Shown in pieces: positions 9,375-63,710 of a stretch of DNA of 64,000 nucleotides; position 1 is the first letter of the stretch, and every line of letters begins with the position of its first letter. Source of the DNA: Acidimicrobiia bacterium (GTDB lineage: Bacteria > Actinomycetota > Acidimicrobiia > Spongiisociales > Spongiisociaceae); assembly GCA_041576165.1 (NCBI GenBank), contig JBFGLM010000018.1, positions 1 to 64,000 on the forward strand, given 5' to 3'. The position numbers and the translations under genes are program-made. The notes beneath the pieces are model-generated. The model searched no databases. It was not told the origin of the DNA and worked only from the letters and a program-made list of their open reading frames with translations.

Positions 9375-10034
9375 TTACCCGAAGTCGAATTCGATCATTG
9401 CTTCCAGGAGCCGGCCGTTGAGCTGGCCCTGGACTTGGCGGGCCACGGTCCCGTTTCCGTTGATCAGATACGTCGTCGGCAACCCGACATGCGGGTAGGC
9501 CTGCGAGATCGCCCCTGACTCATCGATGCCCAATGGGTATGAAACCTGGATCTCCTCGGCGAACTCGCGGGCAGGCCCAACCGCGTCCTCGACCGCGATT
9601 CCAAGGAATTGCACCTCGGGATGTGCCCGAGCGACGTCATCGAATTCCGGCATCTCGGTGCGGCATGGGAAACACCAGGACGCCCAGAAGTTGAGCACGA
9701 TCGGCCGGCCATCCTTCGCAACGTGCTCGGCCAGATCGAACGTTGCCCCGTCGAACATCACGAGTCGAATAGTCGGTGCCGGCTCACCGGCCAGTGCCCC
9801 ACGAGGCATCTCCGCCGGGCTGATTCCCAACTCGGCGGAATCCGCTGGAGGCTCAGCAGCCGGTTCCTCAGGCCCCAACAAGACCGCGTTCAGCCCGAGG
9901 GCAACCACGACGGCGCCGGCCACGATGATCGCCAGCCGCCCGATGCGGCGGGAGAGCGGAGCGACGTCGGGTGGGCCGTCCGGGTCCACCGGCTCGGACG
10001 GGTCTGGTGGGGTGCTGTTGGTGCGATCGTCCAT
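9375..10034 (-). CDS. TlpA-family disulfide reductase
   Basis: TM anchor, LNFWASWCFPCRTEMP and GLPTT. Confidence 0.9.
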   Translation of the reverse strand: MDDRTNSTPPDPSEPVDPDGPPDVAPLSRRIGRLAIIVAGAVVVALGLNAVLLGPEEPAAEPPADSAELGISPAEMPRGALAGEPAPTIRLVMFDGATFDLAEHVAKDGRPIVLNFWASWCFPCRTEMPEFDDVARAHPEVQFLGIAVEDAVGPAREFAEEIQVSYPLGIDESGAISQAYPHVGLPTTYLINGNGTVARQVQGQLNGRLLEAMIEFDFG

Positions 10035-10083
10035 GACTTGCGCGGAATAGGCTACTGCTGGACCCAGACTGTGCGAGGGAGGT

Positions 10084-10671
10084 ATGGCGACCAGCGAAGC
10101 CACCCACGATTCGACCCGGATACCTCCCGGGCAATATTTCACCGAGAGATTCCCAGTACTGCACGCCGGAGTCACACCCAGCATCGATCTCGACGCTTGG
10201 AGCTTGCAGATCGACGGGCTCGTATCGACCCCGGTCACGTATTCCTACGACGCCATTCGGGCGATGCCGGTCACGTCTTTGACCGCGGACATCCACTGCG
10301 TGACGAAGTGGACCAAACTCGACACCGTTTGGGAAGGCGTTGCAGTCCGGGAGCTGGTGGCGGAGGCGGGCGTGGACTCTGATGCGTCGCATGTGCTGGT
10401 GTCGGCGGAACATGGCTTTACGGCCAACCTGCCGGTGCATGATTTCATGCACGAGGAGAATTTGTTTGCCTACCGCTTCGGGGGCGAACAGTTGGAGCTG
10501 GAGCACGGATGGCCGTTGCGCCTCGTCGTGCCGCATCTCTACTTTTGGAAGTCGGTCAAGTGGGTGAGGGGTGTGACCTTCATGCATCACGACGAGCCCG
10601 GCTTCTGGGAGCGCAACGGGTACCACATGTACGGTGACCCATGGAGGGAGCAGCGATACTGGGGCGACTGA
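10084..10671 (+). CDS. Sulfite oxidase-like molybdopterin oxidoreductase
   Basis: IPPGQ, DIHCVTKW, EHGWPLRLVVPHLYFWKSVKW and GFWERNGYH. Confidence 0.92.
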   Translation: MATSEATHDSTRIPPGQYFTERFPVLHAGVTPSIDLDAWSLQIDGLVSTPVTYSYDAIRAMPVTSLTADIHCVTKWTKLDTVWEGVAVRELVAEAGVDSDASHVLVSAEHGFTANLPVHDFMHEENLFAYRFGGEQLELEHGWPLRLVVPHLYFWKSVKWVRGVTFMHHDEPGFWERNGYHMYGDPWREQRYWGD

Positions 10672-11803: not shown

Positions 11804-11922
11804 GGCGGCACGGTACCGCCCGCCCTGCAGCTAGTTGCGAATCGGTGCCCGGGCAACCGGACTGAGTTTGCCAGCACCCGCTCCAAAATCCTGCTACGGT
11901 CGGTTGCGTCGAAAGGAGACGA

Positions 11923-12507
11923 ATGGCGAGCAGAATTGCTCCTGTCGCTCCGGGAGAAAGCCCCGATCCGGAGGTCAACGAAATCCTCCAGGACGGGCGT
12001 GATGCGTGGTGGGCAGACGCAGCGATGTTCGGCGTTATCGGTCGGAATCCTGAGCAGCTCAAAGCGATCATCCCGGTGTTCGTTTCGTTCTTCGGCATGG
12101 GCAAGGTGGAGCCGCACATCCACGAGCTGATGCGGCTCAAGACGGGGCAGATCAACGACTGCGCTTACTGAATGACGGTACGCGTCACCGCCGTGCGCGG
12201 TGAAGTATCGGAAAGAGAAGAAGCGTGCAGCGCTCATCAGCCCCAGCCGGGTGGCGTGCTGAACGAACGGGAAGCGTTGGCCGTGTCATTTGCTGAGAGG
12301 ATCGCGCTCGACCCTCACACCGTGACCGACGACTTCTTTGCCAAGCTCAAGGAGGTCTTCACGGAAGAAGAGATCGTCGAGATGGCGTATGCCTGCGGCA
12401 TCTACAACTGGGGCAACAAGTTCAACATCACGATGCAGTTGGACGCCGAGCCCTGGAGCGAGTACGACATGGGCATGGAATACCGTCAGGAGGAATTGGC
12501 GTTGTGA
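11923..12507 (+). CDS. AhpD/carboxymuconolactone decarboxylase-like protein, probable selenoprotein (Sec at TGA 12169-12171)
   Basis: ORFs 11923-12171 and 12172-12507 are in frame. Joined they read ELMRLKTGQINDCAY-U-MTVR..LNEREALAVSFAE..FTEEEIVEM, one AhpD fold with CxxU. The internal ATG has no SD; a hairpin follows the TGA. Confidence 0.8.
12176..12210 (+). promoter_or_regulatory. Candidate bacterial SECIS element
   Basis: CGGTAC-gcg-TCACCGC-cgtgc-GCGGTGA-a-GTATCG: two-part stem, 5-nt G-containing loop starting about 21 nt after the UGA. Confidence 0.6.
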
Positions 12508-12824
12508 GCGCAATCGCCGAAGTCGACCAGCAGGGACTGGCCGAGGTGCTGCATTCAGAGGACCGGGCGGTACTGGTCGATTTCTGGTCGCAGTGGTGTG
12601 CGCCGTGCCTCCGACTGCGTCCCCATCTGGAGAAGCTGGCGGAGAACTACGCCGACCGCGTGCGGATGGTGGCGATTGACATCGAGCGGCATGAGGAAGC
12701 GAAGGGCGAGTACGACGTCATGTCGCTCCCCACGCTGCTGTTGATGAAGGGAGGGGAAACGATCCATCGCTTCGTTGGACCGACGCTTCCCGGAGCCGTG
12801 GAGGAGCAACTCCAGGCACTTTGA
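12504..12824 (+). CDS. Thioredoxin
   Basis: LVDFWSQWCAPC and SLPTL; GTGA overlap with the upstream gene. Confidence 0.92.
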   Translation: MSAIAEVDQQGLAEVLHSEDRAVLVDFWSQWCAPCLRLRPHLEKLAENYADRVRMVAIDIERHEEAKGEYDVMSLPTLLLMKGGETIHRFVGPTLPGAVEEQLQAL

Positions 12825-12837
12825 ACGACCCACGTCC

Positions 12838-12870
12838 CGAAACAGCCCGGCCGCACGCCGGGCTGTTTCG
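12838..12870 (+). terminator. Intrinsic terminator-like hairpin
   Basis: 14-bp perfect stem CGAAACAGCCCGGC/GCCGGGCTGTTTCG just after thioredoxin. Confidence 0.7.
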
Positions 12871-12910: not shown

Positions 12911-14584
12911 GTGCAGGAGGAGATTCCGGCCGGGGCGCGGCTGCGGGAGCTCGGATCGAACACGCCGGTCACGGCGGTGGTTGGCGCCGGGCCGGCTGGT
13001 CTGCTCTTCTGCCTGGTGTCTCGGTTGCGCTGGATCGTCGATGGGCGCGATGTGGCCCAATGGCCCCTCTACCTGTTCGATAAGCGGGAGCGCTACGAGC
13101 GTTCCCACCGACTGCGGATCGACCCCGCGCCGTTCGCGGAGATCCAGCGCGGGCTCCGCCACCCACGATTCGACGAACTGATGCGGTTCCTCCACGAGCA
13201 CGGTTTCCGGCCCGAAGTGAACCGGCTGGAGGAGAAGTTGGCGTCACTGGTGCGACAAGTCGGAATCGAGCGGGAAATCACCGCCGTCGGCGCCGGCCCC
13301 GGGGAGGCAGATCTGGCGACGTTGCGCTCGAGACTCGAAGCGGCCGGACGTCTCCACCGCAATGGGCACCTGTCGATCGTTGCGGCCGACTCCGTTCACA
13401 GCGCGACGAGGGAGCTGGCTCGAGGAGCGGATCCAGCCGTTGAGCGGTTGCACCACGTGGTCGCGCGGCTGCAGATCGCCGGCCCCGGCCTGCCGGAGCA
13501 TCTGACGTACGTCGAACGATTCAAGCTCGCCAAGGTGCTGGGCTCGGCGCTCGATTATCGGGTCAACTCCAACGGCTACGCCGAAGTGGATCTATTCCTC
13601 ACGCCTGCAGAGCACGTGCACGTCGAGGAGCTAGGAGCCACACCGCGCAGGCCGGTGCACGTCACTGCGGATTCGGTCCCGGCCGCTCCGTTCTTCTCGG
13701 CGATCGTACGGAGCTTCGAAGCGGGTTTCGGAGCTGGCCACTGCGAGGTGTCCGTTCACAGCACTTTCCGGCTCGAACATCGCTATCAGTCGCGGGCGGC
13801 ATTCGATCTGCACGACCTGAATGTCTCGGTGTTCCTGGTGGGCGATGCTGCCATATCGCTTCCGTTCTTTCGGGGAATGGCCGCCCTGGCGGCATCCGTC
13901 GACGCCCTCGTCGACGCTCAGACGCAGTGGGCGGCCGCCACGCTGACGGGCGAGCGCCGGTTCGCGGGACCCGCCTATCAGGCCCGGATGGTCGAGATCC
14001 GGGAAAGGGAAATACGCACGGTCGAGGCCCGGTCCGAGCTGCTGAACATCGCCCGGGAGTTCGTCCGGCTCAGCTCACAGGTGCCATTCCCGATTCAGCA
14101 ATGGTTCCTGTCCAACGACCGGCCGCCGGTGCGCGGCGGCCGGTTCACCGGAGGGGTCGCCGCCAATCTCTTGTTCGCAATCGCCGCGCTGGTCGTTGCG
14201 CTGGGTGCCCCGCTGGCCGGCGGCCTGATCTGGCCACCGCTGGGATGGTTGTGGCTATTGGCCATGCCGCTCCAGCTGCTCGGGGGCGGCATGTACCAGG
14301 CCACCCAGTCGCACGAACCGAGTGACAACCCATTGCTGGCCGCCGTGTGGCGAATCCAGATCGCAGCGCTGCTGATCGGCGGCGTGCCCATCACCCTGCT
14401 CAGCAGCTGGGTGCAGGGCCGGCCCGCCCAGCTGTTCGGACTGTTCGGCTGGCTGCTGCTCGGCGGCGCTTTCGCCGCCGGCATGCGCACGTATGAGCGG
14501 ATCGAGCACCGCCGCTGGGTGAGCGGCGGACTCGACACCTCGGCACCGGGTCCGGCGCCGCCCGGCTTGCGACGCTCGGGGTAG
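12911..14584 (+). CDS. FAD-dependent oxidoreductase-like protein with C-terminal membrane domain
   Basis: VVGAGPAG, AADSVHS and LVGDAA flavoprotein motifs; about four TM helices at the C-terminus; start uncertain. Confidence 0.65.
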   Translation: MQEEIPAGARLRELGSNTPVTAVVGAGPAGLLFCLVSRLRWIVDGRDVAQWPLYLFDKRERYERSHRLRIDPAPFAEIQRGLRHPRFDELMRFLHEHGFRPEVNRLEEKLASLVRQVGIEREITAVGAGPGEADLATLRSRLEAAGRLHRNGHLSIVAADSVHSATRELARGADPAVERLHHVVARLQIAGPGLPEHLTYVERFKLAKVLGSALDYRVNSNGYAEVDLFLTPAEHVHVEELGATPRRPVHVTADSVPAAPFFSAIVRSFEAGFGAGHCEVSVHSTFRLEHRYQSRAAFDLHDLNVSVFLVGDAAISLPFFRGMAALAASVDALVDAQTQWAAATLTGERRFAGPAYQARMVEIREREIRTVEARSELLNIAREFVRLSSQVPFPIQQWFLSNDRPPVRGGRFTGGVAANLLFAIAALVVALGAPLAGGLIWPPLGWLWLLAMPLQLLGGGMYQATQSHEPSDNPLLAAVWRIQIAALLIGGVPITLLSSWVQGRPAQLFGLFGWLLLGGAFAAGMRTYERIEHRRWVSGGLDTSAPGPAPPGLRRSG

Positions 14585-48249: not shown

Positions 48250-48323
48250 GGGGCTGTAGCTCAGTTCGGCAGAGCACCTCGTTCGCAACGAGGGGGTCAG
48301 GGGTTCAAATCCCCTCAGCTCCA
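48250..48323 (+). tRNA. tRNA-Ala (anticodon CGC)
   Basis: GGGGCTG/CAGCTCC acceptor stem with G3:U70, anticodon arm CCTCG-TTCGCAA-CGAGG and TTCAAAT T-loop; CCA not encoded. Confidence 0.96.
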
Positions 48324-51156: not shown

Positions 51157-52974
51157 ATGAAAAGGCGTGCGCATTTACCGATGCTCATCGCGCTGGCGTT
51201 GACCATGGCCACGATTGCCACGGTCCCGGCCGCAGCGCAACACGCGACTGACCCGAATACCGTGCTCCTGGACGATTTCGACGGCGTCACACAGGGCGAG
51301 GAGCACGGAACCATCAGCTATGCACCGTCGCTTCCAGCGCTTGGTCAGGCCGTCGACTTGGAGCCCGGCGACTGGTTGAAGTACGCCGTGCCGCCTTGGG
51401 CCGGGCAACAAGGCACGATCGAGGCGTGGATCTACCCGGCCACCTATGGCTACAGCATCGCGCTGCTCCAGTGGATCAACACCAACACCAACCCCCCGGC
51501 CGGCTACATCGGGCACTTGAACATCAATCCCGACGGGCACCTGCAGTGGGGTTCCTGGGGTCCACCGTGGTGCTCGCCACCGACGCTGACTGGAAGCAGC
51601 GTCATTCCTCTCGAGGAATGGACACACGTCGCCGCCACCTGGAGCCCGGACGATACCCGCTTGTACGTCAACGGCGTGCTCGACTTCGTGAGCACATGTA
51701 ACCGGGCGCCGGCCCTTTGGACCGATCCGACCTACGTCTACGTCAACGGCTGGGGCGACTTCGATCACGGTCTCATGGACGAGTTCCGTATCTCCAGCGT
51801 GCCGAGGAGCGAGGAGGAGATCAGGGCTTACGTGATCGAGATTCTTAACTCGCCGCCGGTCAGCGACCCGAACGGGCCGTACCTGGGCGCGATGGACGTG
51901 GATGTCGGCTTCGACGGCACCGCATCCTCCGACCCCGACGGCGACCCCCTCGTGTACGACTGGGACTGGGGCGACACCACGGCCTCCTCTAACGCGGGGG
52001 CGATGCCGACCCACACCTATGACGCTGCGGGGATCTACGACATATGCCTGACGGTGACCGACGCCTTTGGGGAGTCGAACACCGCGTGTACCTACATCGT
52101 GGTGTACGACTCCGACGGGGGATTCGTCACCGGCGGCGGCTGGATCGAATCGCCCGCGAACGCCTACTACCCGGCGGATATGCCGTTCTTTGATGGCAGC
52201 TACTACGACATCTTCTTCTCGGAAGAGCCGCTGGATTTCTTCGATGCGCGTGACCTAGTGGCCGGGATGAGTTGTGATCGGTGTGAGAGCGCCCATCTCG
52301 CCACGGTTACTTCCCAAGGCGAGTACGACACGGTCCTTGAGTTGTTCGACGAGTTCGGTGGTGCGGTGTTGGGTGGCTTCCAAGAAGAGGGGGTGTCCCC
52401 GCCCTATGCCGGTTGGCAGTGGGTCACCGGTGAGTCGTTCGACTTCGAGGCCACGCTCGATTGGTGGCTCCCAGGCGAACCAAACGACTGCGGCCCCTCG
52501 AACACAGACGAATGTGTTCCTGGCTCCGAGCAGGTCCTAGAAATGTACTCGGACCCGGAAGGCTGGAACGATGTCCCCTTCTACGAGCCGAGGAATGTCT
52601 TCATGGTCGAGTACGAGGACTGTGATTTTGGACCCACCGGCAAGGCGACATTCGCGTTTGTCTCCAAGTACAAGAAGGGTGCGTCGGCGCCGACCGGCAA
52701 CACCGAGTTCCGGTTCAACGCTGGAGACCTTAACTTCCATTCGACCAGCTACGACTGGCTGGTGGTGACGGGTTCCGACTACGCCAAGTTCAAGGGCACG
52801 GGAACCATCAACGGTGAGGGTGAGTACAAGTTCCAGATATGGGCTGGAGACGGTGACCCCGACACCTTCCGTATCAAGATCTGGTACGAAGACGGCGGAG
52901 AGGTTGTCGTCTACGACAATGGAATGAACCAACCAATCGGCGGCGGCAGCATCATTGTTCATGCAAGGAAATAG
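51157..52974 (+). CDS. Secreted protein: LamG + PKD + C-type-lectin-like insert + C-terminal beta domain
   Basis: Signal peptide; WTHVAATW..LYVNG..DEFRIS; FDGTASSDPDG..WDWGD; HLATVTS..WQWVTGE..PGEPND..WND. Confidence 0.85.
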   Translation: MKRRAHLPMLIALALTMATIATVPAAAQHATDPNTVLLDDFDGVTQGEEHGTISYAPSLPALGQAVDLEPGDWLKYAVPPWAGQQGTIEAWIYPATYGYSIALLQWINTNTNPPAGYIGHLNINPDGHLQWGSWGPPWCSPPTLTGSSVIPLEEWTHVAATWSPDDTRLYVNGVLDFVSTCNRAPALWTDPTYVYVNGWGDFDHGLMDEFRISSVPRSEEEIRAYVIEILNSPPVSDPNGPYLGAMDVDVGFDGTASSDPDGDPLVYDWDWGDTTASSNAGAMPTHTYDAAGIYDICLTVTDAFGESNTACTYIVVYDSDGGFVTGGGWIESPANAYYPADMPFFDGSYYDIFFSEEPLDFFDARDLVAGMSCDRCESAHLATVTSQGEYDTVLELFDEFGGAVLGGFQEEGVSPPYAGWQWVTGESFDFEATLDWWLPGEPNDCGPSNTDECVPGSEQVLEMYSDPEGWNDVPFYEPRNVFMVEYEDCDFGPTGKATFAFVSKYKKGASAPTGNTEFRFNAGDLNFHSTSYDWLVVTGSDYAKFKGTGTINGEGEYKFQIWAGDGDPDTFRIKIWYEDGGEVVVYDNGMNQPIGGGSIIVHARK

Positions 52975-52993
52975 CCCCACCAACGCACGTCTA

Positions 52994-53023
52994 CGGGGAG
53001 CGACCACACCGGGTGGCTCCCCG
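52994..53023 (+). terminator. Terminator-like hairpin
   Basis: CGGGGAGC..CCAC/GTGG-CTCCCCG bulged stem about 20 nt after the stop. Confidence 0.45.
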
Positions 53024-53274
53024 TTCCCGCGGATCATCTCTCCGTTTCAGCGCGGCCCTCCCCGCAGCAAGCTCACCTGCACGGTGACCGCTGATAGCGC
53101 ACCTGTATGGCGTTCCTAGCCATGGACTGACACGTGGGTCAGGCCGCCAGCACCATCGACGGCCGTCCTGCGCTGGTGGCGGAACGGTGGGGCCGACAGT
53201 CGATGGCGAAGCGTGACCTGCATCGCCTATCGTCTCCCTAGCGGGCACTCATCGCAAAGTGGGGGGTTGAGCCA

Positions 53275-54960
53275 ATGGCCTATGCGAGCAGACGGAGCCT
53301 CGTCGTCCCCTTCGTCGTCGCCCTCGTCGGATCCGTAATGCTCGCCATCGCCTCCGATCGGCCAGCGCTGGCGGCCGGATCCGAGATCAGTACGATCTCC
53401 AACCCGAGCGCGCTGGAGGGTGGTGACTCCGGGACCACCAACGTCACGTTCGTGGTCACCGCCACCTGCACGGAGGCGCTCAATGTCATCATCGACTGGC
53501 GTATCGACGACGGCACGGCCACCACCGCCGACAACGACTACGACGACGCCACCGGACAGCTCGACGACGTGTGCCAGGCAGCCGGCACCGAGACGTTTAA
53601 CATCACGGTGTCGGTCAACGGCGACACCAACTTCGAGGCCAACGAGACGTTCGACCTGGTGCTGGTCAACCCGTCGATCGGCACACCGAGCTTCGCGCTG
53701 ACCGCCGACACCGGCACCGCCACGATCCTCAACGACGACGCAGCCAACCAGCCGCCCGCCGTCACCGTCGACCAAGCAGCGGTGACGGTCGGCGAGGGGA
53801 GCACCGCCCTCAACGGCGGCACCGTCGCGGACCCGGACGGCGACCAGGTGACGATCTCGGCGTCGGTCGGTTCGGTGACGAACAACGGCGACGGCACATG
53901 GAGCTGGTCGTACCCGACCACCGACGGTCCCGACGAGTCCCAGACCGTGACCATCACCGCCGACGACGGCAGCCTGACCACCTCTACCGCGTTCCAGGTT
54001 GTCGTGATGAACGTGGCGCCGAGCGTCGCTGCCGACAACGCCTCGGTCGTCGTGGCCGAGGGCGCGACTGCGGCGAACACGGGGACGTTCTCCGACCCGG
54101 GCGCCGACACCGTGACGATCGGGGCGTCGGTGGGCACGGTGACCCAGGGCGCCGGCACCTGGAGTTGGTCGTACCCGACCACCGACGGTTTCGGCGACTC
54201 CCAGACCGCGACCATCACTGCCACCGACAGCGACGGCGCCTCGTCCGCCACCACGTTCGACCTCGGCGTCACCAACGTGGCGCCGACCGCAGATGCCGGC
54301 CCCCACCAGACGGTGTTCCGCTTCGACCCGGTGACGGTCACCGGCACGTGGACGGACCCGGCCGGCAGCGCCGACGACGACTATTCGTGGAGCTGGGACC
54401 TCGACGGAGATGCCGTCGTCGACGACTCCGGCACGGCGGGCTCCGGCTCGACGATCACCAGGGCAACGTCGTTCGCCCTCGAGGGCGTCTACACCCTGAC
54501 CTTCGGCGTCACCGATAAGGACGGGGCGAGCGACAGCGACACGGTCGAGATCGAGGTGCTCAACCAGCCCCCGGTGTGCACGGCCGCCCGACCGAGCGTC
54601 GGCACCCTGTGGCCGCCCAACCACCGCCTGGTCGACGTAGCGGTCCTCGCGGTAACCGACCCCGAAGGCGATCCGATCGTCGTCACCATCGACTCGATCT
54701 TCCAGGACGAGCCCGTGGGAGGCCTGGGCGACGGAAACACGGCACCTGACGGTTTCGGCGTTGGCACGTCGACGGCGTCCGTCCGGGCAGAGCGCGACGG
54801 CGCCGGCAATGGGCGCGTGTACCACGTCGCCTTCACCGCGGGCGACGGCCATGGGGGCTCGTGCTCATCGGTGATCCAGGTGAGCGTGCCCGTCAGTCAG
54901 CGCATGGGCGGCGCTTTCGTCGACGACGGAGCCCTGTTCGACTCGACGGCCGCTCCGTAG
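53275..54960 (+). CDS. Secreted Calx-beta / Ig-like repeat / PKD protein
   Basis: Signal peptide; EGGDSG..NGDTNFEANETF Calx-beta; two TWSWSYPTTDG repeats; WDLDGD; LWPPNH..RAERDG.GNGRVY domain. Confidence 0.85.
   Translation: MAYASRRSLVVPFVVALVGSVMLAIASDRPALAAGSEISTISNPSALEGGDSGTTNVTFVVTATCTEALNVIIDWRIDDGTATTADNDYDDATGQLDDVCQAAGTETFNITVSVNGDTNFEANETFDLVLVNPSIGTPSFALTADTGTATILNDDAANQPPAVTVDQAAVTVGEGSTALNGGTVADPDGDQVTISASVGSVTNNGDGTWSWSYPTTDGPDESQTVTITADDGSLTTSTAFQVVVMNVAPSVAADNASVVVAEGATAANTGTFSDPGADTVTIGASVGTVTQGAGTWSWSYPTTDGFGDSQTATITATDSDGASSATTFDLGVTNVAPTADAGPHQTVFRFDPVTVTGTWTDPAGSADDDYSWSWDLDGDAVVDDSGTAGSGSTITRATSFALEGVYTLTFGVTDKDGASDSDTVEIEVLNQPPVCTAARPSVGTLWPPNHRLVDVAVLAVTDPEGDPIVVTIDSIFQDEPVGGLGDGNTAPDGFGVGTSTASVRAERDGAGNGRVYHVAFTAGDGHGGSCSSVIQVSVPVSQRMGGAFVDDGALFDSTAAP
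53746..54273 (+). repeat. Two tandem intragenic Ig-like repeats of 88 codons
   Basis: Units begin at 53746 and 54010; both contain GCGTCGGT and TGGTCGTACCCGACCACCGACGGT. Confidence 0.8.
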
Positions 54961-55059
54961 GTCCGCCGGTCGCTGCCGACCCGTTCCACGAAGCGTCGGG
55001 CAGGCTCACGGCTGGCACCAACGCCATCGCCCAGGCCGGCATCACTTCGGATGCGGAAG

Positions 55060-55290
55060 CAATGTCGACTGCCCCAAGCAGCTCATAGCCCGAGTGGAGC
55101 ATGGCGTCATAGAGGTCGTTCTTGGTGGCGAAGTATTGATACAGCGAGGGAGCCTTCATCCCAACGCTGGCCGCTACGTGGCGCATGGAGAAGCCCTCGA
55201 TCCCTTCCGCTCGAGCAAGCTCCCAAGCGGCTTCAACGATCTCGGCCCTGGACTCAAGGTGTCGTCTCGTTCTTCGGTCGAGCTCTTGAC
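55060..55290 (-). pseudogene. TetR-family regulator fragment
   Basis: RAEIVEAAWELARAEGIEGFSMRHVAASVGMKAPSLYQYFATKNDLYD HTH; no standard start codon upstream of the first helix and no recognisable C-domain. Confidence 0.7.
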
Positions 55291-55315
55291 TCGGAGATCG
55301 CTGGGTGATGCCCAG

Positions 55316-55624
55316 TCACCGCGAGGGCTGACCGCAATCCAGAGCGACCTTGCCGGTCTCATCGATGCTGACACCCTCGCGACGCAGCAGTGGTTCCTGT
55401 GTCGGGCGGTGGGTCCGGTACAGGCGGCCCGACGAAGGTATGACTCGCCACCAGGGCAGATCGGGGAACCGTCGCAAGACATTCGCCACTGCCTGCGCAG
55501 ATCCCGGATGTCCTGCCTCCGCTGCCACCTCCGCATACGTGGCGACGTCGCCAGGTCGCAGCGACGCGACGATGGCTGTCACTGCCCGCTGGAAGTCTGT
55601 CGGTTGCTGAGGCGGGTTCGGCAT
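55316..55624 (-). CDS. MGMT-family alkyltransferase-like protein (ATL)
   Basis: GDVATYAEVA and PWWRVI (Trp replaces the active Cys); start may be 55645. Confidence 0.85.
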   Translation of the reverse strand: MPNPPQQPTDFQRAVTAIVASLRPGDVATYAEVAAEAGHPGSAQAVANVLRRFPDLPWWRVIPSSGRLYRTHRPTQEPLLRREGVSIDETGKVALDCGQPSR

Positions 55625-55857
55625 CCCACCGGGCGGCATAGTCATGACGTCCAGGATGACATCTCCCCGAGGTTCGATGTTCGACCGGCTGGACCGTTTG
55701 AACGTCGCCGGCCTGGTTGGGCTACTCAAACGTATAGACACATTTCGGATAATTCTCATGGAAAGACCGTCCACCTTTGCGCCAGACAACGATAGGGTGC
55801 GAACGACGGCCAGTCAGGACCGCGTGCCAGGCGCGGGGCCGCAGTGGGGAGGGGCAC

Positions 55858-58800
55858 ATGACGGGATCTCGGTACGCTCGAATGCGAGGGGCAGCGGCCG
55901 ACAGGCTTGCACTGCTGTTGGTGCTGAGCTTAGTTGCGTCCCTCGCAATGGTTGGTTCGCCCGAGGAAGCCGCGGGCTCTGAGCCACCGGTGCCGTCGCT
56001 GTGGCTTGTTGACGACGGCACTGACATGACGTACAACGTCACACCCGACGGCGACCTCAACTTCTCGTTTGCCACTCCCAGGAATGCCGTCTCGTCCGTT
56101 GCGCTCGACCCAACTGATCAGTCGTTGTGGGGCGCGAATGACGGGGCCACGAGCCGGCTCGTCAACTACACCTACGAGGTCGTCGACGGGCAAGCGGTGG
56201 CAGTCGTCCTGCAGGAGATTCTCGGGTCGGAATTCGGGGCTGTGAGCGGCGAGGGTGTAGCCGTCACATTCAACCCCGGGAACGACACCCTGTGGGTGGT
56301 CGATGATCCCCTCATCTCTTCTGAACTCGAGCCAACCGTATTCAATATCACCCAGGACGGAACGCTGATCTCGTCATTCCCTACGAGCACGTTCGATCCT
56401 GCATCGCGTAGCCCACAGGCCATTGCGTTCGACCAGTACACCGACACGCTGTGGATCACCGACAATTCCGCAGACAAGATCTACAACGTGACGTTCAATG
56501 GGACCTTGATCAGCACCATCCCGCTGAACGTGGAGCCGTTTTCGATACGCAACGTGCAGGGCGTCTCGGTCGAATCCGCCAACGTCCTATGGTTGACCGC
56601 CCGAGATACCGATCTGGTCTACCGGATCTCGACCGACGGGACGATATTGTCGACGTTCTCGATCAGCCACGTCGACGCCAACGCCGGCAATCCGACCGGC
56701 GTTGCGTATGACCCCGGTTCGGCAGCCTTGCGGCTGGGGGAGGCGGGATCATTCGCGATGCTGGGGCTTGCGGGCGCCAAGCTCAAACTGGAGGATGTCG
56801 CGCAGGCGTCCGGTGTCGTTGGCGACGTTGGCCTCTCGGCCGGGGCGAAGCAGGAGTTCAATGACGGCTTGCTGACCGGAAGCTATATCGTCGATCCGGA
56901 TGCCGACAATGACCAGTCCCACGATGTGGTGATCTCCGGCGAAACTCTGACAGCCGATCTCTCCCAAGCCGTCACCGACGCACTGGATCTCGCGTCGACT
57001 TCGGCGGCGCTGCCATCCGATTTCACGTTCGACGAAATCAAAACCAACACGGTCGTGGTCGGGGCGCCGGGCATCAACGTCATAGATACAAACAAGATCG
57101 AGCTGGACGGCGAAACACTTCGACTTGAGGGCTTCCCGACGTCCGTCTTCATCATCAACGTCGGACAATCGTTCAAACTCAAGAACGGCAGCTCGATGCA
57201 ACTGACCGGAGGCGTCGATCCAACCAACGTGCTGGTCAACATCACCGGCGGATCGGACTCTGCGATCGAGGGTGGAAGTGTGGCCGCCGGCACGATCCTG
57301 GCCCCGGCCGCCAAGATGAAGATCAAGGACCAGGGCTCGTTCTTGCTTGGTTCGATCATCGGCGGCGAAGAAATCAAGCTAGAGAGTGGTGGGCGTTTGC
57401 GCTCATTCAGCGAGGCCATCACTCCTGGAACTGCCCTGGCTCCACCGGGCGTCGCCGTCGTGGCTTTGCCTGGGACGAAAGCGAAGCTGAAGGACCCGAA
57501 CTCGCTCGTATCAGGTGATGTCCTCCTGGGGCCGGCCTCTGAGCAGGACTTTGACAGCGGTGTTATCGCGGGGACGCTGCAGCTGGACCCAACGGCCAAC
57601 GCTTCCAGCAATCACGCAGTCGAGATCAGCGGCGGCACCGTCGAGATGGATCTCTCGCGCGTCGTCGCCGACCTGGTCGACGCGTCGACAGCCTATGCGA
57701 ACATGACTCCTGCGCAGAGTTTCGACGAGATAGAGAGCACGACGACGATCGCCGGAGTGACTGGACTCAACGTCATCCACGCCGAGAAGATCGAGCTCGA
57801 CAACGGCGAGCAGCTGATCCTGACCGGTGATGCCACCGCCAAGTTCGTATTCAACCTGTCGGACAAGTTCAAGCTCAAAGAGGGGAGCGCGATCGTGCTC
57901 TCAGAGGACCTACCCGCCGAAAACGTGGTCTTCAACGTGCGCGGCAATTCCGACTCCGCGGTGGAGGGCAGCAGCGTTGGTCGGGGCACCATCCTCGCTC
58001 CATATGCAAACAAAGTGAAGGTCAAGGATGCCGGATCGGCGGTGTTCGGTGCATTGATCGGTTCCGGTGAGGTCATCATCGAATCAGGAGGTGCGGTAGA
58101 TCATGGCCTTCCACCAACTCCTTCGCTCGCACAAACGAGCTTTCGTGTTCGGGACGACTCCACGGCGCTGGCCGCTGATAGCGGGTGGCTGGGCTTGCTC
58201 AACGAAGCCGTGACCGTCGCCGCGGAGACGACATTCCGGCTACGACTGGAGATCGAAGAGACAAATGGTGCACGGGCGGAGGCCGCCTTCCTGCTCCAGT
58301 ACCGCCAAAACGGCGGGGCGTGGACAGATGTCCACACCAGCCGCCCAATAGACGAACGCGATCGTTCCGCTACCCACGGAGTCGAATCGTGGCCCACCAC
58401 GCACTACGCGACGGGTGATCCCACCGACGATCTGCTGGCCGGGTCAGGTCGTGATTTCGTTGGCGGCATCGCCAGCGCCGCCCCATCCAACGGCACGGCG
58501 TCGGTGGTGTTGGAGGGGGAGCACACCGAGCTGGAATGGGCCATACGGATCCACAAGTTCTACGACGGCAGATCGATCAACCAGGTGGGAGACACCTTCG
58601 AGTTCCGGGTGGTCCTCGCCGACGGTACACCGCTCGACAGCTACGCAGCCACCCCGGTGCTCAGCCTCGATTGGCCCGATGGGCTCGTCGGCGGGACCTA
58701 TGTCGAGAGTCCCCACCGTCTCGGACCATTCCGCGACGGCAACGGCAATCTGTATTTCCCCGTCGAGTATGCCGAAACCGATGCCGAGTGGGTGATGTTG

Positions 58801-59841
58801 AAATCTCCGGATGGCGGCGTCACCTGGACGCCGGTGGATGAGGCCGGGGCGCCGGGGAGCGGCGACCTCGAGAGCGTGGATATCCACCAGGTCGGAGACA
58901 CTCTTCATATCCTGCACACCGGCGGTTCGACGGCCTCACTCCATCTCCGCTACTACACGTTCTCGATGTCGGACCATCCTTCGACGCCCGATGCATGGGG
59001 CGTGGATGAGCTGGTGACGAGCGGTTTCGCAGCCGGTGACCAGTCTTCTGCGCTCGGCGTGCTCGACGATGGGCGAGTCCGTGCGTTCTTCCGCTACGAC
59101 CGTGGCGGATCGGATCGGATCGGCTACCGGACCCGGGCGGTCGATGGCAGCTGGGATGCCACCACGACCGAGATCGACAGTGAGGCGGTGGATTTCACCG
59201 ATGTGGTCGTCGCCCGGTCCGCTGCTGAGGGGGATCTGGTCCATGTCTTTTACAACGACAACAGCAATGGCGTGTTCTATCACCGCGCCCTGGATGGTGA
59301 CGGCGCATTGTCGCCTCGGTCATTGATCGCCTCCGGCACCGGGACGCAGAGCGCCGACGAGCAGCCGCTCGTCCCGGCCGTGGTCTGGGACGACGGCAAC
59401 GATATGGTGATGGTTGGTTACTGGAGCGAGACGTCCGGGAGGCGGCTGCGGGCGGCAGTGCTGAAGAACGGTGGCGTCGTCTCGGACCGCCGCTGGTCGG
59501 ATGACGTGCCGGCCCAGGATCGGGGAACATCGTCGCAACCCGTGGCGGACCTGGCGAATGACGGCAGCACCGTGTACGGGTTGTTTGCCGATACCGGTTC
59601 CCCAGATCAGCTCTACGCCGATGTGAATGTCGACGATACGAGCTGGGGCCCCGACATACCTCAGTTTGCGAATCCTAACGATGATTTTGGCTGGATCCGT
59701 GGCAGGATCTTCACACACGCGGCATCCAACGGCGGTGCGAAGGTGTACGGCTTCGTCTACGACATCGGTAACGAGGCGGACCGGGTGGGCTACGGCACCG
59801 GGTACGTCTACTACGGAGAGCTGGCCGTCCCCTTCGGATGA
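55858..59841 (+). CDS. Large secreted modular protein: beta-propeller, two ice-binding-like/choice-of-anchor-A solenoid domains, BNR-containing C-module
   Basis: Signal peptide; repeated LWxxD blades; two GDV.L..DLS..V.D..F.IN..NV.N..GTILAP units; SPDGGVTW. Confidence 0.8.
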   Translation: MTGSRYARMRGAAADRLALLLVLSLVASLAMVGSPEEAAGSEPPVPSLWLVDDGTDMTYNVTPDGDLNFSFATPRNAVSSVALDPTDQSLWGANDGATSRLVNYTYEVVDGQAVAVVLQEILGSEFGAVSGEGVAVTFNPGNDTLWVVDDPLISSELEPTVFNITQDGTLISSFPTSTFDPASRSPQAIAFDQYTDTLWITDNSADKIYNVTFNGTLISTIPLNVEPFSIRNVQGVSVESANVLWLTARDTDLVYRISTDGTILSTFSISHVDANAGNPTGVAYDPGSAALRLGEAGSFAMLGLAGAKLKLEDVAQASGVVGDVGLSAGAKQEFNDGLLTGSYIVDPDADNDQSHDVVISGETLTADLSQAVTDALDLASTSAALPSDFTFDEIKTNTVVVGAPGINVIDTNKIELDGETLRLEGFPTSVFIINVGQSFKLKNGSSMQLTGGVDPTNVLVNITGGSDSAIEGGSVAAGTILAPAAKMKIKDQGSFLLGSIIGGEEIKLESGGRLRSFSEAITPGTALAPPGVAVVALPGTKAKLKDPNSLVSGDVLLGPASEQDFDSGVIAGTLQLDPTANASSNHAVEISGGTVEMDLSRVVADLVDASTAYANMTPAQSFDEIESTTTIAGVTGLNVIHAEKIELDNGEQLILTGDATAKFVFNLSDKFKLKEGSAIVLSEDLPAENVVFNVRGNSDSAVEGSSVGRGTILAPYANKVKVKDAGSAVFGALIGSGEVIIESGGAVDHGLPPTPSLAQTSFRVRDDSTALAADSGWLGLLNEAVTVAAETTFRLRLEIEETNGARAEAAFLLQYRQNGGAWTDVHTSRPIDERDRSATHGVESWPTTHYATGDPTDDLLAGSGRDFVGGIASAAPSNGTASVVLEGEHTELEWAIRIHKFYDGRSINQVGDTFEFRVVLADGTPLDSYAATPVLSLDWPDGLVGGTYVESPHRLGPFRDGNGNLYFPVEYAETDAEWVMLKSPDGGVTWTPVDEAGAPGSGDLESVDIHQVGDTLHILHTGGSTASLHLRYYTFSMSDHPSTPDAWGVDELVTSGFAAGDQSSALGVLDDGRVRAFFRYDRGGSDRIGYRTRAVDGSWDATTTEIDSEAVDFTDVVVARSAAEGDLVHVFYNDNSNGVFYHRALDGDGALSPRSLIASGTGTQSADEQPLVPAVVWDDGNDMVMVGYWSETSGRRLRAAVLKNGGVVSDRRWSDDVPAQDRGTSSQPVADLANDGSTVYGLFADTGSPDQLYADVNVDDTSWGPDIPQFANPNDDFGWIRGRIFTHAASNGGAKVYGFVYDIGNEADRVGYGTGYVYYGELAVPFG
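58141..59838 (+). repeat. Duplicated module, copy 1 (1698 nt)
   Basis: FRVRDDS...PFG is colinear with 60893-62590. Confidence 0.9.
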
Positions 59842-62599: not shown

Positions 62600-62798
62600 A
62601 GACACGAGTGAAAGAGCGCCGAATGGTTCGCCAGCCGGCGCTTGCCCGAGGGATCTCTCTCCGCCCCGGCGCCCCGCTGGCGGCCCGCAATCTCTCATGG
62701 ACCCGTTACCTGACCGAGAAGTCTCGCTTCGGCGGCCCGGCCCTGATTAAGGCATTGACCTTCGCTGGGAATGGTGATGTACTGTCGCTTCACAACGC

Positions 62799-62879
62799 GC
62801 TCATCAAGAGCGGTGGAGGGACAGGCCCTGTGAAGCCGCGGCAACCGGACGAGTACGGTGCCAATGCCTGTCGATGAGT
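62799..62879 (+). ncRNA. SAM-I riboswitch, compact variant without P4
   Basis: CTCATCAAGAG..GGAGGGA..GAAG..GGCAACC..GGTGCCAA..GATGAG; P1 CTCATC/GATGAG; pseudoknot ACAGGC/GCCTGT. Confidence 0.92.
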
Positions 62880-62944
62880 TCTAGCTGACGGCGGTTTTCC
62901 GCTCGCAGCGCTCGGAGAGCGCGTACAAGCGATTAGGAGCCAAC

Positions 62945-63149: not shown

Positions 63150-63710
63150 ATGACCACAACCCAACAACCTGTCAACAACGGCGTCAACGTGCAAGCCCTG
63201 CTCGAGGCACGCCAAGCCCTCACCGATGCGCCCGAGGCGGCGCAATTCACGTGGAGGGCGACCACCGAGTGGGCGGGCGGTACGCACAGCCAGTCCACCG
63301 TGGAGGGCTTCCACGGCCTGGGAGAGGAGCAGGCACACAAGACAACGTTCACCTTCTCGGCCGATCATCCAGAGATCTTCGCCTCGGAGGATTTGGGTGC
63401 CACTCCCGTCGAGCTCGTGCTGGTCGGCCTGGCCAGCTGCCTCACTGCCGGTGTTGCGTCGGTGGCGCAGAATCGTGAGATTCAGCTGAACTCGGTCAAG
63501 GCGACGATCGAGGGCGACATGGACATCCTTGGCATCCTCGGGGCCGATCCCGAGGTCAGGAACGGTTTCAGCGGAATCCGCGTCAACTACGAAATCGACG
63601 CTGACGCGACCCAGCAGGAGATCGAAGCGCTGGTGGCGCAATCCCAGAAGCGCTCGGCGGTGTTCGACGTGGTCACCAACCCGACCAACGTCACCGTCAG
63701 CGTCAACTGA
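63150..63710 (+). CDS. OsmC-family protein
   Basis: NGVNV, ADHPE..D.GATPVE..L.GLASCL and RSAVFD; strong SD. Confidence 0.88.
   Translation: MTTTQQPVNNGVNVQALLEARQALTDAPEAAQFTWRATTEWAGGTHSQSTVEGFHGLGEEQAHKTTFTFSADHPEIFASEDLGATPVELVLVGLASCLTAGVASVAQNREIQLNSVKATIEGDMDILGILGADPEVRNGFSGIRVNYEIDADATQQEIEALVAQSQKRSAVFDVVTNPTNVTVSVN

Follow-up and report, generated by a model that had tools for sequence, protein, structure and literature searches.

Selenoproteins that combine an AhpD-like domain with a CxxU motif (U, selenocysteine, Sec) have been known since 2005, when 27 sequences from the Sargasso Sea were reported under COG2128 (PMC1088965). The Global Ocean Sampling (GOS) survey contained 299 sequences ("AhpD-like 1") plus 70 AhpD-like ones, which placed them among the most abundant selenoprotein families of the ocean (PMC2398784). 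A 2026 review contains several AhpD-like entries, listed under TIGR01926, and regards what exactly the operon-linked AhpD-like selenoproteins do as unknown (PMC13188914). Here, we investigated a 64,000-nucleotide (nt) stretch of an Acidimicrobiia bacterium genome (GenBank assembly GCA_041576165.1, contig JBFGLM010000018.1, positions 1 to 64,000, forward strand), referred to below as the window. A first-pass annotation had proposed that it hides an AhpD-like CxxU selenoprotein gene in an operon with thioredoxin, and its premise that such selenoproteins exist is borne out by the sets published over the last two decades. Comparison with homologous loci indicates that the in-frame TGA at 12169–12171 is almost certainly read as Sec within one AhpD-fold protein.

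The predicted protein resembles the published AhpD-like sets in its AhpD-like domain, CxxU motif, downstream bacterial Sec insertion sequence (bSECIS), widespread Cys homologues, and best NCBIfam match, TIGR01926, for which it scored 57.2 bits against a cutoff of 81.8. Matches to NF053654 (YciW-related; 55.5 vs. 310 bits, below cutoff while spanning nearly the whole read-through product) and NF041238 (AhpD_rel_CFYUT; 18.1 vs. 175 bits) were weak, TIGR04030 gave 36.3 bits against a cutoff of 233, and NF041047 and NF041537 (ArsM/AhpD) gave no match at E 0.01. In the portions available of the papers on these sets, neither an Arg-for-His replacement nor a thioredoxin operon is mentioned, and it is by such descriptions only that the present subfamily is set apart from them. 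The operon section of the 2026 review names only a peroxiredoxin (Prx)-like protein with an AhpD-like one (PMC13188914). Judging from the accessible part of its description, BSepDB may list members of the subfamily under its general AhpD-like heading (PMC13326102). Literature searches, with most subscription journals outside their coverage, returned no account of an Arg-type, thioredoxin-linked subfamily. The kind of protein is an established one, no NCBIfam cutoff is passed, and, as far as the literature covered can tell, the Arg-for-His replacement and the conserved thioredoxin partner appear to be undescribed.

Among structurally characterized proteins, PA0269 of Pseudomonas aeruginosa and the solved AhpD-like proteins (2O4D, 6K40, 6E8L, 3LVY, 2PRR, 2OYO) share the fold (Z 15–18) and the Glu/Cys/Tyr/Cys-Sec residues, but differ in identity (14–27%), in the replacement of His55 by Arg87, and in that the second Cys is Sec in the window protein. 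The AhpD of M. tuberculosis has the CxxC helical hairpin and a related fold (Z about 10); it differs in having another topology and a His-based relay, in being lipoyl-reduced, and in serving AhpC, and no ahpC gene recurred as a neighbor at the loci studied here. The tetrabromopyrrole debrominase Bmp8 matches the window protein in length, has the CxxC at the corresponding position, and shares the fold (Z 16.7), but is only 17–18% identical, the His after its CxxC is absent from the window protein, and no bromopyrrole gene cluster was present. On a plasmid of Deinococcus peraridilitoris, ahpD genes adjoin trx and trxR (PMC8945050). These genes provide a precedent for clustering of AhpD-like, thioredoxin, and thioredoxin reductase genes, and they are not described as selenoproteins in the part of that paper available.

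Probable Recoding of an In-Frame TGA

The open reading frame (ORF) at 11923–12171 of the window closes at a TGA right behind the residues NDCAY, and the same frame stays open for 111 more codons, up to a TGA at 12505–12507. Read through, the gene (11923..12507, +) encodes 194 residues, including Glu68, Cys80, Tyr82, Sec83, and Arg87. The internal TGA (12169..12171, +) supplies the second position of the CxxU motif, C80-A-Y-U83. A ribosome-binding site, AAAGGAG (11912..11918, +), can be seen in the sequence 4 nt upstream of the ATG at 11923. TIGR01926 matched residues 17–173 of the read-through product (E 1.8e-15), and a Pfam CMD match bridged the TGA junction (E 0.0021, under cutoff). The N-terminal half alone gave zero profile matches in Pfam and NCBIfam.

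Two samples of homologues were compared. A protein search returned 266 matches, of which 120 were listed; these comprised 113 full-length proteins and 7 pieces of 110–111 aa. In species genomes, 115 relatives were confirmed by a scan; all locus counts below refer to the best 80 of these 115, ranked by similarity to the Sec-form query, so that the sample favors Sec forms. The first-pass annotation had placed the TGA exactly at the second Cys of the AhpD CxxC motif, and both samples agree with this placement. Each of the 113 full-length proteins among the matches listed carried Cys at both 80 and 83, with identities of up to 66% over 99% of their length. At the genome loci, codon 83 was TGA in 68 (two of them from the same assembly) and TGC or TGT in the remaining 12, so every locus had either TGA or Cys at this site, as the homologue check proposed in that annotation would have it. 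In 65 of the 68 loci, the coding frame was intact and complete both before and after the TGA, the other three being cut by contig ends. The TGA loci were distributed over seven named phyla plus four unassigned records; a TGA common to so many lineages is therefore not a sequencing read error, which had been raised as a concern. The nearest relatives of the window gene were TGA-bearing metagenome-assembled genomes (MAGs) of Acidimicrobiia, with both halves intact and 84–85% identical.

The expectation that Sec use would be patchy in actinobacteria did not fit the AhpD-like gene within Acidimicrobiia, where all 30 loci had TGA. Pseudonocardia, Microbacterium, and Rhodococcus had Cys at codon 83 in all three of their loci. 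The prediction that standard pipelines would split the gene in two was upheld: 7 of the 120 protein matches listed were 110–111 aa long and began at Met84, right behind the TGA position, with 81–99% identity to the window, and 9 of 150 representatives were short pieces ending at C-x-Y. Protein databases consequently misreport the family: their entries are Cys forms and fragments only, although Sec forms make up 68 of the best 80 genome loci.

SECIS Hairpin

The first-pass annotation described a SECIS-like hairpin at bacterial spacing behind the TGA. In the window, a 6-bp upper stem (12186..12202, +), which is defined by covariation in homologues, closes an apical loop CGUGC (12192–12196) that begins 20 nt behind the TGA, and the hairpin had an energy of −18.6 kcal/mol. 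The published bSECIS model, as given in the part of the review available, has a loop of 3–9 nt, a stem of 4–16 bp, a G in the first two loop positions, a distance of 16–37 nt after the UGA, and an energy of at most −7.5 kcal/mol (PMC13188914). Tested with a hand-coded version of this model rather than with bSECISearch, the window element agreed with it in its 5-nt loop, G position, 20-nt spacing, and energy. An outer, lower stem could be drawn at about 12176–12210 (+) and was not conserved in register.

Covariation was assessed in 69 TGA rows (68 distinct) and 12 Cys rows. The upper stem was paired in 97.8% of the cells of the TGA rows, with compensatory changes in four of the six pairs. Two-sided changes amounted to 58 cells compared with 18.6 in shuffled alignments, and the covariation score was reached by 0 of 500 shuffles; these counts are of sequences, not of independent events, and related clades inflate them. 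The same columns in the Cys rows were 40.3% paired, which is the level of the shuffles. Counted by locus, at least five of the six pairs formed in 68/68 TGA loci and at most four in 12/12 Cys loci, and loop positions 2–3 were GU in every TGA locus. At codons 90 and 91, conservation of the silent third position reached 94%, whereas 71 other four-fold sites had a median of 52% and did not exceed 81%; this conservation therefore indicates constraint on the RNA and not on the protein only. We accept the hairpin as real because of its covariation in homologues and not because of its fold in the window. The loop G, the spacing, and the covariation thus sustain the earlier description, while the hairpin is weak when folded alone. 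Separately, an alphaproteobacterial Sec clade had a SECIS stem with one mismatch.

Selenocysteine Machinery

Genes for tRNA-Sec and selB were found within ~5 kb of the AhpD-like gene at three loci, namely Haloechinothrix halophila (L038) and two betaproteobacterial MAGs (L040 and L047). L040 additionally has a selA gene, and L047 has one in pieces; none was found in H. halophila within the 20 kb examined. The tRNAs beside these relatives scored as tRNA-Sec, with 71–81 bits against a cutoff of 47 (the tRNA scans covered all 80 loci with ARAGORN and 6 with Rfam). Sec machinery has also been reported in Actinomarina, another Acidimicrobiia lineage (bioRxiv 10.64898/2026.04.03.716425, seen in part), and the present locus adds to the sparse evidence of Sec use in this class.

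The two MAG loci contain what appears as a selenium cluster (L040:1111-8409 and L047:4361-10911) in the order SelL-related redox gene, Prx-like gene, tRNA-Sec, selB, selA, ArsM-like methyltransferase, AhpD-like gene, and thioredoxin. In both, the ArsM-like gene has an in-frame stop followed by a further open frame. At L038:5191-10911, an IS256 transposase lies ~0.6 kb beyond the selB, tRNA-Sec, TetR, AhpD-like, and thioredoxin genes, and may hint at acquisition of the cluster en bloc.

Fold and Active Site

The AlphaFold model, in which U was modeled as C, was all-helical, with a predicted local distance difference test score (pLDDT) of 95.2 and a predicted template modeling score (pTM) of 0.90, and showed an AhpD-like fold with the CxxC(U) helical hairpin. 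The top structural matches were AhpD-like proteins of Streptococcus, Ralstonia, and Deinococcus together with Bmp8, tied within ~1 Z unit (Z 16.6–17.7; root-mean-square deviation, rmsd, 2.6–2.8 Å over 172–176 residues); the best AhpD-like matches as a whole ranged over Z 16.0–17.7 and 171–176 residues. This model and the CMD match across the junction support the proposal that the frame downstream of the TGA completes the fold.

Four of the five relay positions of PA0269 are kept in the subfamily: E68, C80, and Y82 occurred in 80/80 loci, and residue 83 was Sec or Cys. The fifth is not. Arg87 (codon 12181..12183, +), four residues past the second Cys position, aligns with His55 of PA0269, and Arg occupied this catalytic-His position in 80/80 loci and in all 113 full-length proteins among the matches listed. 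The label "AhpD-like" holds for the fold, the CxxU motif, and four relay residues. With Arg in place of the proton-relay His, a feature that the first-pass annotation had overlooked, the protein is not a canonical AhpD. Among CxxC domains, Arg was also present in 18 of the 20 ranked at the top and in 28 of 76 that are more distant. Since it is common in these more distant relatives, Arg87 marks a wider branch and probably predates Sec. The idea that Arg87 arose because of Sec was unsupported, as Arg occurs in all Cys forms and in many distant CxxC domains.

A FastTree phylogeny that included 10 of the 113 database proteins and was rooted on six distant proteins had Cys forms branching first, and the quick tree gave two changes. 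This would fit one gain of Sec with later returns to Cys, the direction being uncertain because the FastTree came with warnings about long branches and protein sets do not show Sec forms. Further Cys residues were noted. Cys102 (codon 12226–12228 in the window) was found in 32 of the 69 Sec rows and 0 of the 12 Cys loci, the position being hydrophobic in the others. In 22 of the 113 Cys-form proteins, Cys was located at residue 100 instead, and in L053:3603-3608 and L061:4101-4106 a Cys codon directly behind the TGA gives C-x-x-U-C.

Thioredoxin Partner and Gene Neighborhood

A thioredoxin gene (12504..12824, +; 106 aa, W-C32-A-P-C35) follows the AhpD-like gene. As the first-pass annotation had noted, the two are coupled through GTGA, the GTG start overlapping the final TGA of the upstream gene. 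The thioredoxin has its own visible AGGAGG ribosome-binding site (12488..12493, +) within the 3' end of the AhpD-like gene, and it matched Pfam PF00085 (E 1.7e-22; 79.8 bits vs. a cutoff of 23.5), with a TIGR01068 score just below cutoff (89.6 vs. 96.8). The possibility that translation runs through the final TGA into the thioredoxin is excluded, because the two genes lie in different frames.

The thioredoxin was located downstream in 47 of the 62 Sec loci with enough flanking sequence and in 12/12 Cys loci. C32, C35, and the cis-Pro P75 were invariant in 58 aligned thioredoxins. On a plasmid of Halorientalis marina, thioredoxins flank the AhpD-like gene on both sides. A thioredoxin reductase gene was present within 3.5 kb in 7 of the 12 Cys loci, from two clades. 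The redox relay proposed earlier is in keeping with the conserved thioredoxin partner; its description as Sec-dependent is not, because the Cys forms retain the same thioredoxin, so the relay is not Sec-specific. No Sec-containing thioredoxin was seen: of the 59 downstream thioredoxins, the 57 extracted all have CxxC, the extraction being keyed on CxxC and missing L060 and L074. When two copies of the Pseudonocardia Cys homologue were modeled with the thioredoxin that belongs to it, the predicted complex scored 0.30 against a mark of 0.32 and was used neither way. In the alphaproteobacterial Sec clade, L053, L056, L059, L061, and L063 had divergent thioredoxins with CVIC or CVVC and no preceding Trp.

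Beyond the thioredoxin, a TetR gene was near in 24 of the 80 loci (TetR_C_13 in the 3 scanned, and a G-C-L/F motif in 14/14 printed), and a DsbA-like gene was near in 7/80. Neither adjoins the gene in the window. No metabolic gene recurred as an immediate neighbor in more than 4 loci (264 adjacent ORFs), and 76 neighboring ORFs scanned against Pfam did not suggest a pathway. Individual loci contained further genes, such as a cyanase in the neighborhood of L045. At L082:7001-8502 and L083:7001-8423, distant haloarchaeal homologues (37–40% identity) adjoin crcB fluoride exporters, with formamidase genes near.

Proposed Mechanism

The two ORF halves probably constitute one selenoprotein gene in a two-gene operon, whose product would serve in a thioredoxin-recycled defense against oxidants or electrophiles. 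The part of this reading that concerns decoding can be held with high confidence: Sec would be inserted at the UGA by SelB acting through the GU-loop hairpin, giving the 194-residue CxxU protein. Here, host SelB would bind the hairpin 20 nt past the UGA and deliver Sec-tRNA. Of the two Cys residues in the AhpD motif, the second one attacks, and by analogy with AhpD-like chemistry the Sec83 selenolate would attack the oxidized substrate, with Cys80 resolving the intermediate to a selenenyl-sulfide. By the same analogy, the substrate is slightly more likely than not a hydroperoxide or some comparable reactive oxidant or electrophile. Arg87 probably stabilizes the anionic nucleophile or the leaving group. 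The coupled thioredoxin would then reduce the selenenyl-sulfide, and thioredoxin reductase and NADPH would reset the thioredoxin. Such an NADPH–thioredoxin reductase–thioredoxin–AhpD relay is quite likely, given a gene order in which the thioredoxin is conserved and the reductase occurs in 7/12 Cys loci; the reductase lies beside many Cys forms and for Sec forms is presumably encoded elsewhere in the genome. We infer that the unit acts as a small stress-defense cassette, often accompanied in relatives, though not in the window, by a Cys-bearing TetR-family regulator.

Several observations weigh against this reading. For decoding, the window hairpin by itself barely exceeds chance (z −2.07, −1.05, and −0.60 when 54, 62, and 100 nt, respectively, are folded), the simple bSECIS model is met by 306 of the 1608 TGA triplets of the window (19%), and the covariation counts are inflated by relatedness as mentioned. 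The hand-drawn lower stem was unsupported, with 42.5% of its cells paired, and RNAalifold retained the upper six pairs only. No selA, selB, or tRNA-Sec gene was found within the 64-kb window (selD was not searched by similarity), and Sec machinery adjoined the gene in only 3 of the 68 TGA loci. For function, His55 of the relay has been called invariant and essential in AhpD-like proteins in the portion of the PA0269 report available, where PA0269 itself is a weak peroxidase (PMC3141380). This His is absent from the subfamily, and peroxidase activity is therefore not transferable from AhpD-like proteins. Characterized AhpD, according to the part of the Deinococcus paper at hand, is reduced by lipoyl systems, not by thioredoxin (PMC8945050). 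The thioredoxin was lacking in 15 of the 62 Sec loci, mostly of Acidobacteriota and Chloroflexota, and beside two more distant haloarchaeal homologues (two of the three plasmid matches inspected, of 8). A thioredoxin reductase gene was near the gene in 0 of the 68 Sec loci (45 with enough flanking sequence).

Alternative Explanations

The main rival is that the protein is a disulfide-reductase adaptor and not the final scavenger. It would either deliver electrons to another protein, in the way that M. tuberculosis AhpD serves AhpC, or carry them from lipoyl groups through the AhpD-like protein to the neighboring thioredoxin. This is the characterized role of AhpD in the available parts of two reports (PMC3141380, PMC8945050), and it would accord with the reductase being adjacent in none of the Sec loci and with the recurrence of DsbA-like genes in 7 of 80 loci. 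However, neither a peroxiredoxin nor a lipoamide enzyme was a recurrent neighbor, Prx-like genes being confined to the selenium clusters of L040 and L047, and the Cys loci that combine thioredoxin reductase, thioredoxin, and AhpD suggest a flow towards the AhpD-like protein. We consider an adaptor unlikely.

Second in rank is an AhpD-fold selenoenzyme recycled by thioredoxin that would carry out reductive dehalogenation or remove halogenating oxidants, in the manner of Bmp8 or the deiodinases. Vertebrate deiodinases use Sec for dehalogenation chemistry. The neighboring TetRs with their conserved Cys, which we take to be related to NemR, would agree with such a role, as would the two distant haloarchaeal homologues beside crcB fluoride exporters. 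Bmp8 itself (195 aa) was tied among the top structural matches (Z 16.6–16.7, rmsd 2.6–2.7 Å, 174–175 residues aligned). The His three residues past its CxxC, which has a catalytic role, is however Val86 in the window protein, and the identity to Bmp8, only 17–18%, was no better than that to uncharacterized peroxidase-related proteins. No halogenase or organohalide-pathway gene was found in the 76 scanned neighbor proteins or in recurrent neighbor clusters. From the parts of the literature available, Bmp8 has been proposed to debrominate by oxidizing its cysteines to a disulfide (PMC5577590), and NemR is a TetR-family repressor that senses hypochlorous acid via Cys (PMC7464077). Taken together, a dehalogenating enzyme seems improbable. 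The same doubtful standing applies to the more general idea of an Arg-type Sec enzyme with a dedicated thioredoxin and a non-peroxide reaction, of which dehalogenation or the quenching of halogenating oxidants is the boldest version. If true, it would represent a bacterial selenium analogue of Bmp8 and the deiodinases in Acidimicrobiia, Entotheonella, Acidobacteriota, and others.

It is very unlikely that the TGA is a true stop, with the locus a pseudogene, a relic in a Sec-less genome, or a split gene that re-initiates at the ATG behind the TGA. Such an ATG does lie directly behind the TGA in the window, and the failure to find selA, selB, and tRNA-Sec there would suit a Sec-less host. Against this, only 18 of the 68 loci have an ATG at that place, a stop would remove the second redox residue, both halves are intact (84–85% identity with the nearest TGA-bearing relatives), and the SECIS is kept. 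Least credible is decoding of the TGA as another residue, either Cys by a UCA-anticodon tRNA, which is a rare mechanism, or Trp or Gly by a changed code: sequence comparison cannot separate Sec from Cys insertion in the host, but TGA ends most long ORFs of the window, including the AhpD-like gene and the thioredoxin, so that no global reassignment is indicated, homologues have Cys and never Trp or Gly at the site, and the tRNAs beside relatives score as tRNA-Sec.

For the favored thioredoxin-recycled selenoprotein, the subfamily makes function testable, with an electron donor in the same operon and with Sec and Cys versions that occur in nature and share up to 66% identity. Among cultured organisms, H. 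halophila carries the Sec form with selB and tRNA-Sec adjoining, and Pseudonocardia sulfidoxydans, Duganella aceris, and Methylibium sp. carry the Cys form with the full set of thioredoxin reductase, thioredoxin, and AhpD genes.

Boundaries of the Unit and Other Features of the Window

A hairpin with a perfect 14-bp stem follows the thioredoxin (12838..12870, +; z −4.95 for a 56-nt stretch, a value that none of 200 shuffles equaled). A canonical U-tract is missing and the hairpin was not listed by the terminator scan, hence the terminator that the first-pass annotation saw closing the unit is rated as likely only. A scan for a sigma-70-like promoter gave none. Neither the 557-aa gene nor the DegT-like gene that flank the unit belongs to it, as they were present in 0 of the 80 loci. 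The 557-aa ORF (12911–14584, +) had no Pfam or NCBIfam match; it bears a GAGPAG motif at the N-terminus, and its C-terminus is hydrophobic. Its look-alikes in the Atlas were FAD-binding oxidoreductases (score 0.95). Upstream of the operon by 1.3–2.5 kb are a TlpA-like thioredoxin-fold gene (9375–10238, −) and a molybdopterin oxidoreductase gene (10084–10671, +), which are not conserved beside the operon in relatives.

Farther away, a SAM-I riboswitch (RF00162, 71.3 bits; 62798–62880, +) was located upstream of an OsmC-like gene (63150–63710, +). In L005, an OsmC-like gene lies 2 kb from the AhpD-like gene and adjoins an MSMEG_0569-like flavin oxidoreductase. The region at 51157–59841 (+), which comes after a tRNA-Ala at 48250, encodes large proteins that look secreted and contain Laminin G, PKD, Ig, Calx-beta, and ice-binding-like domains; it is possibly an island.

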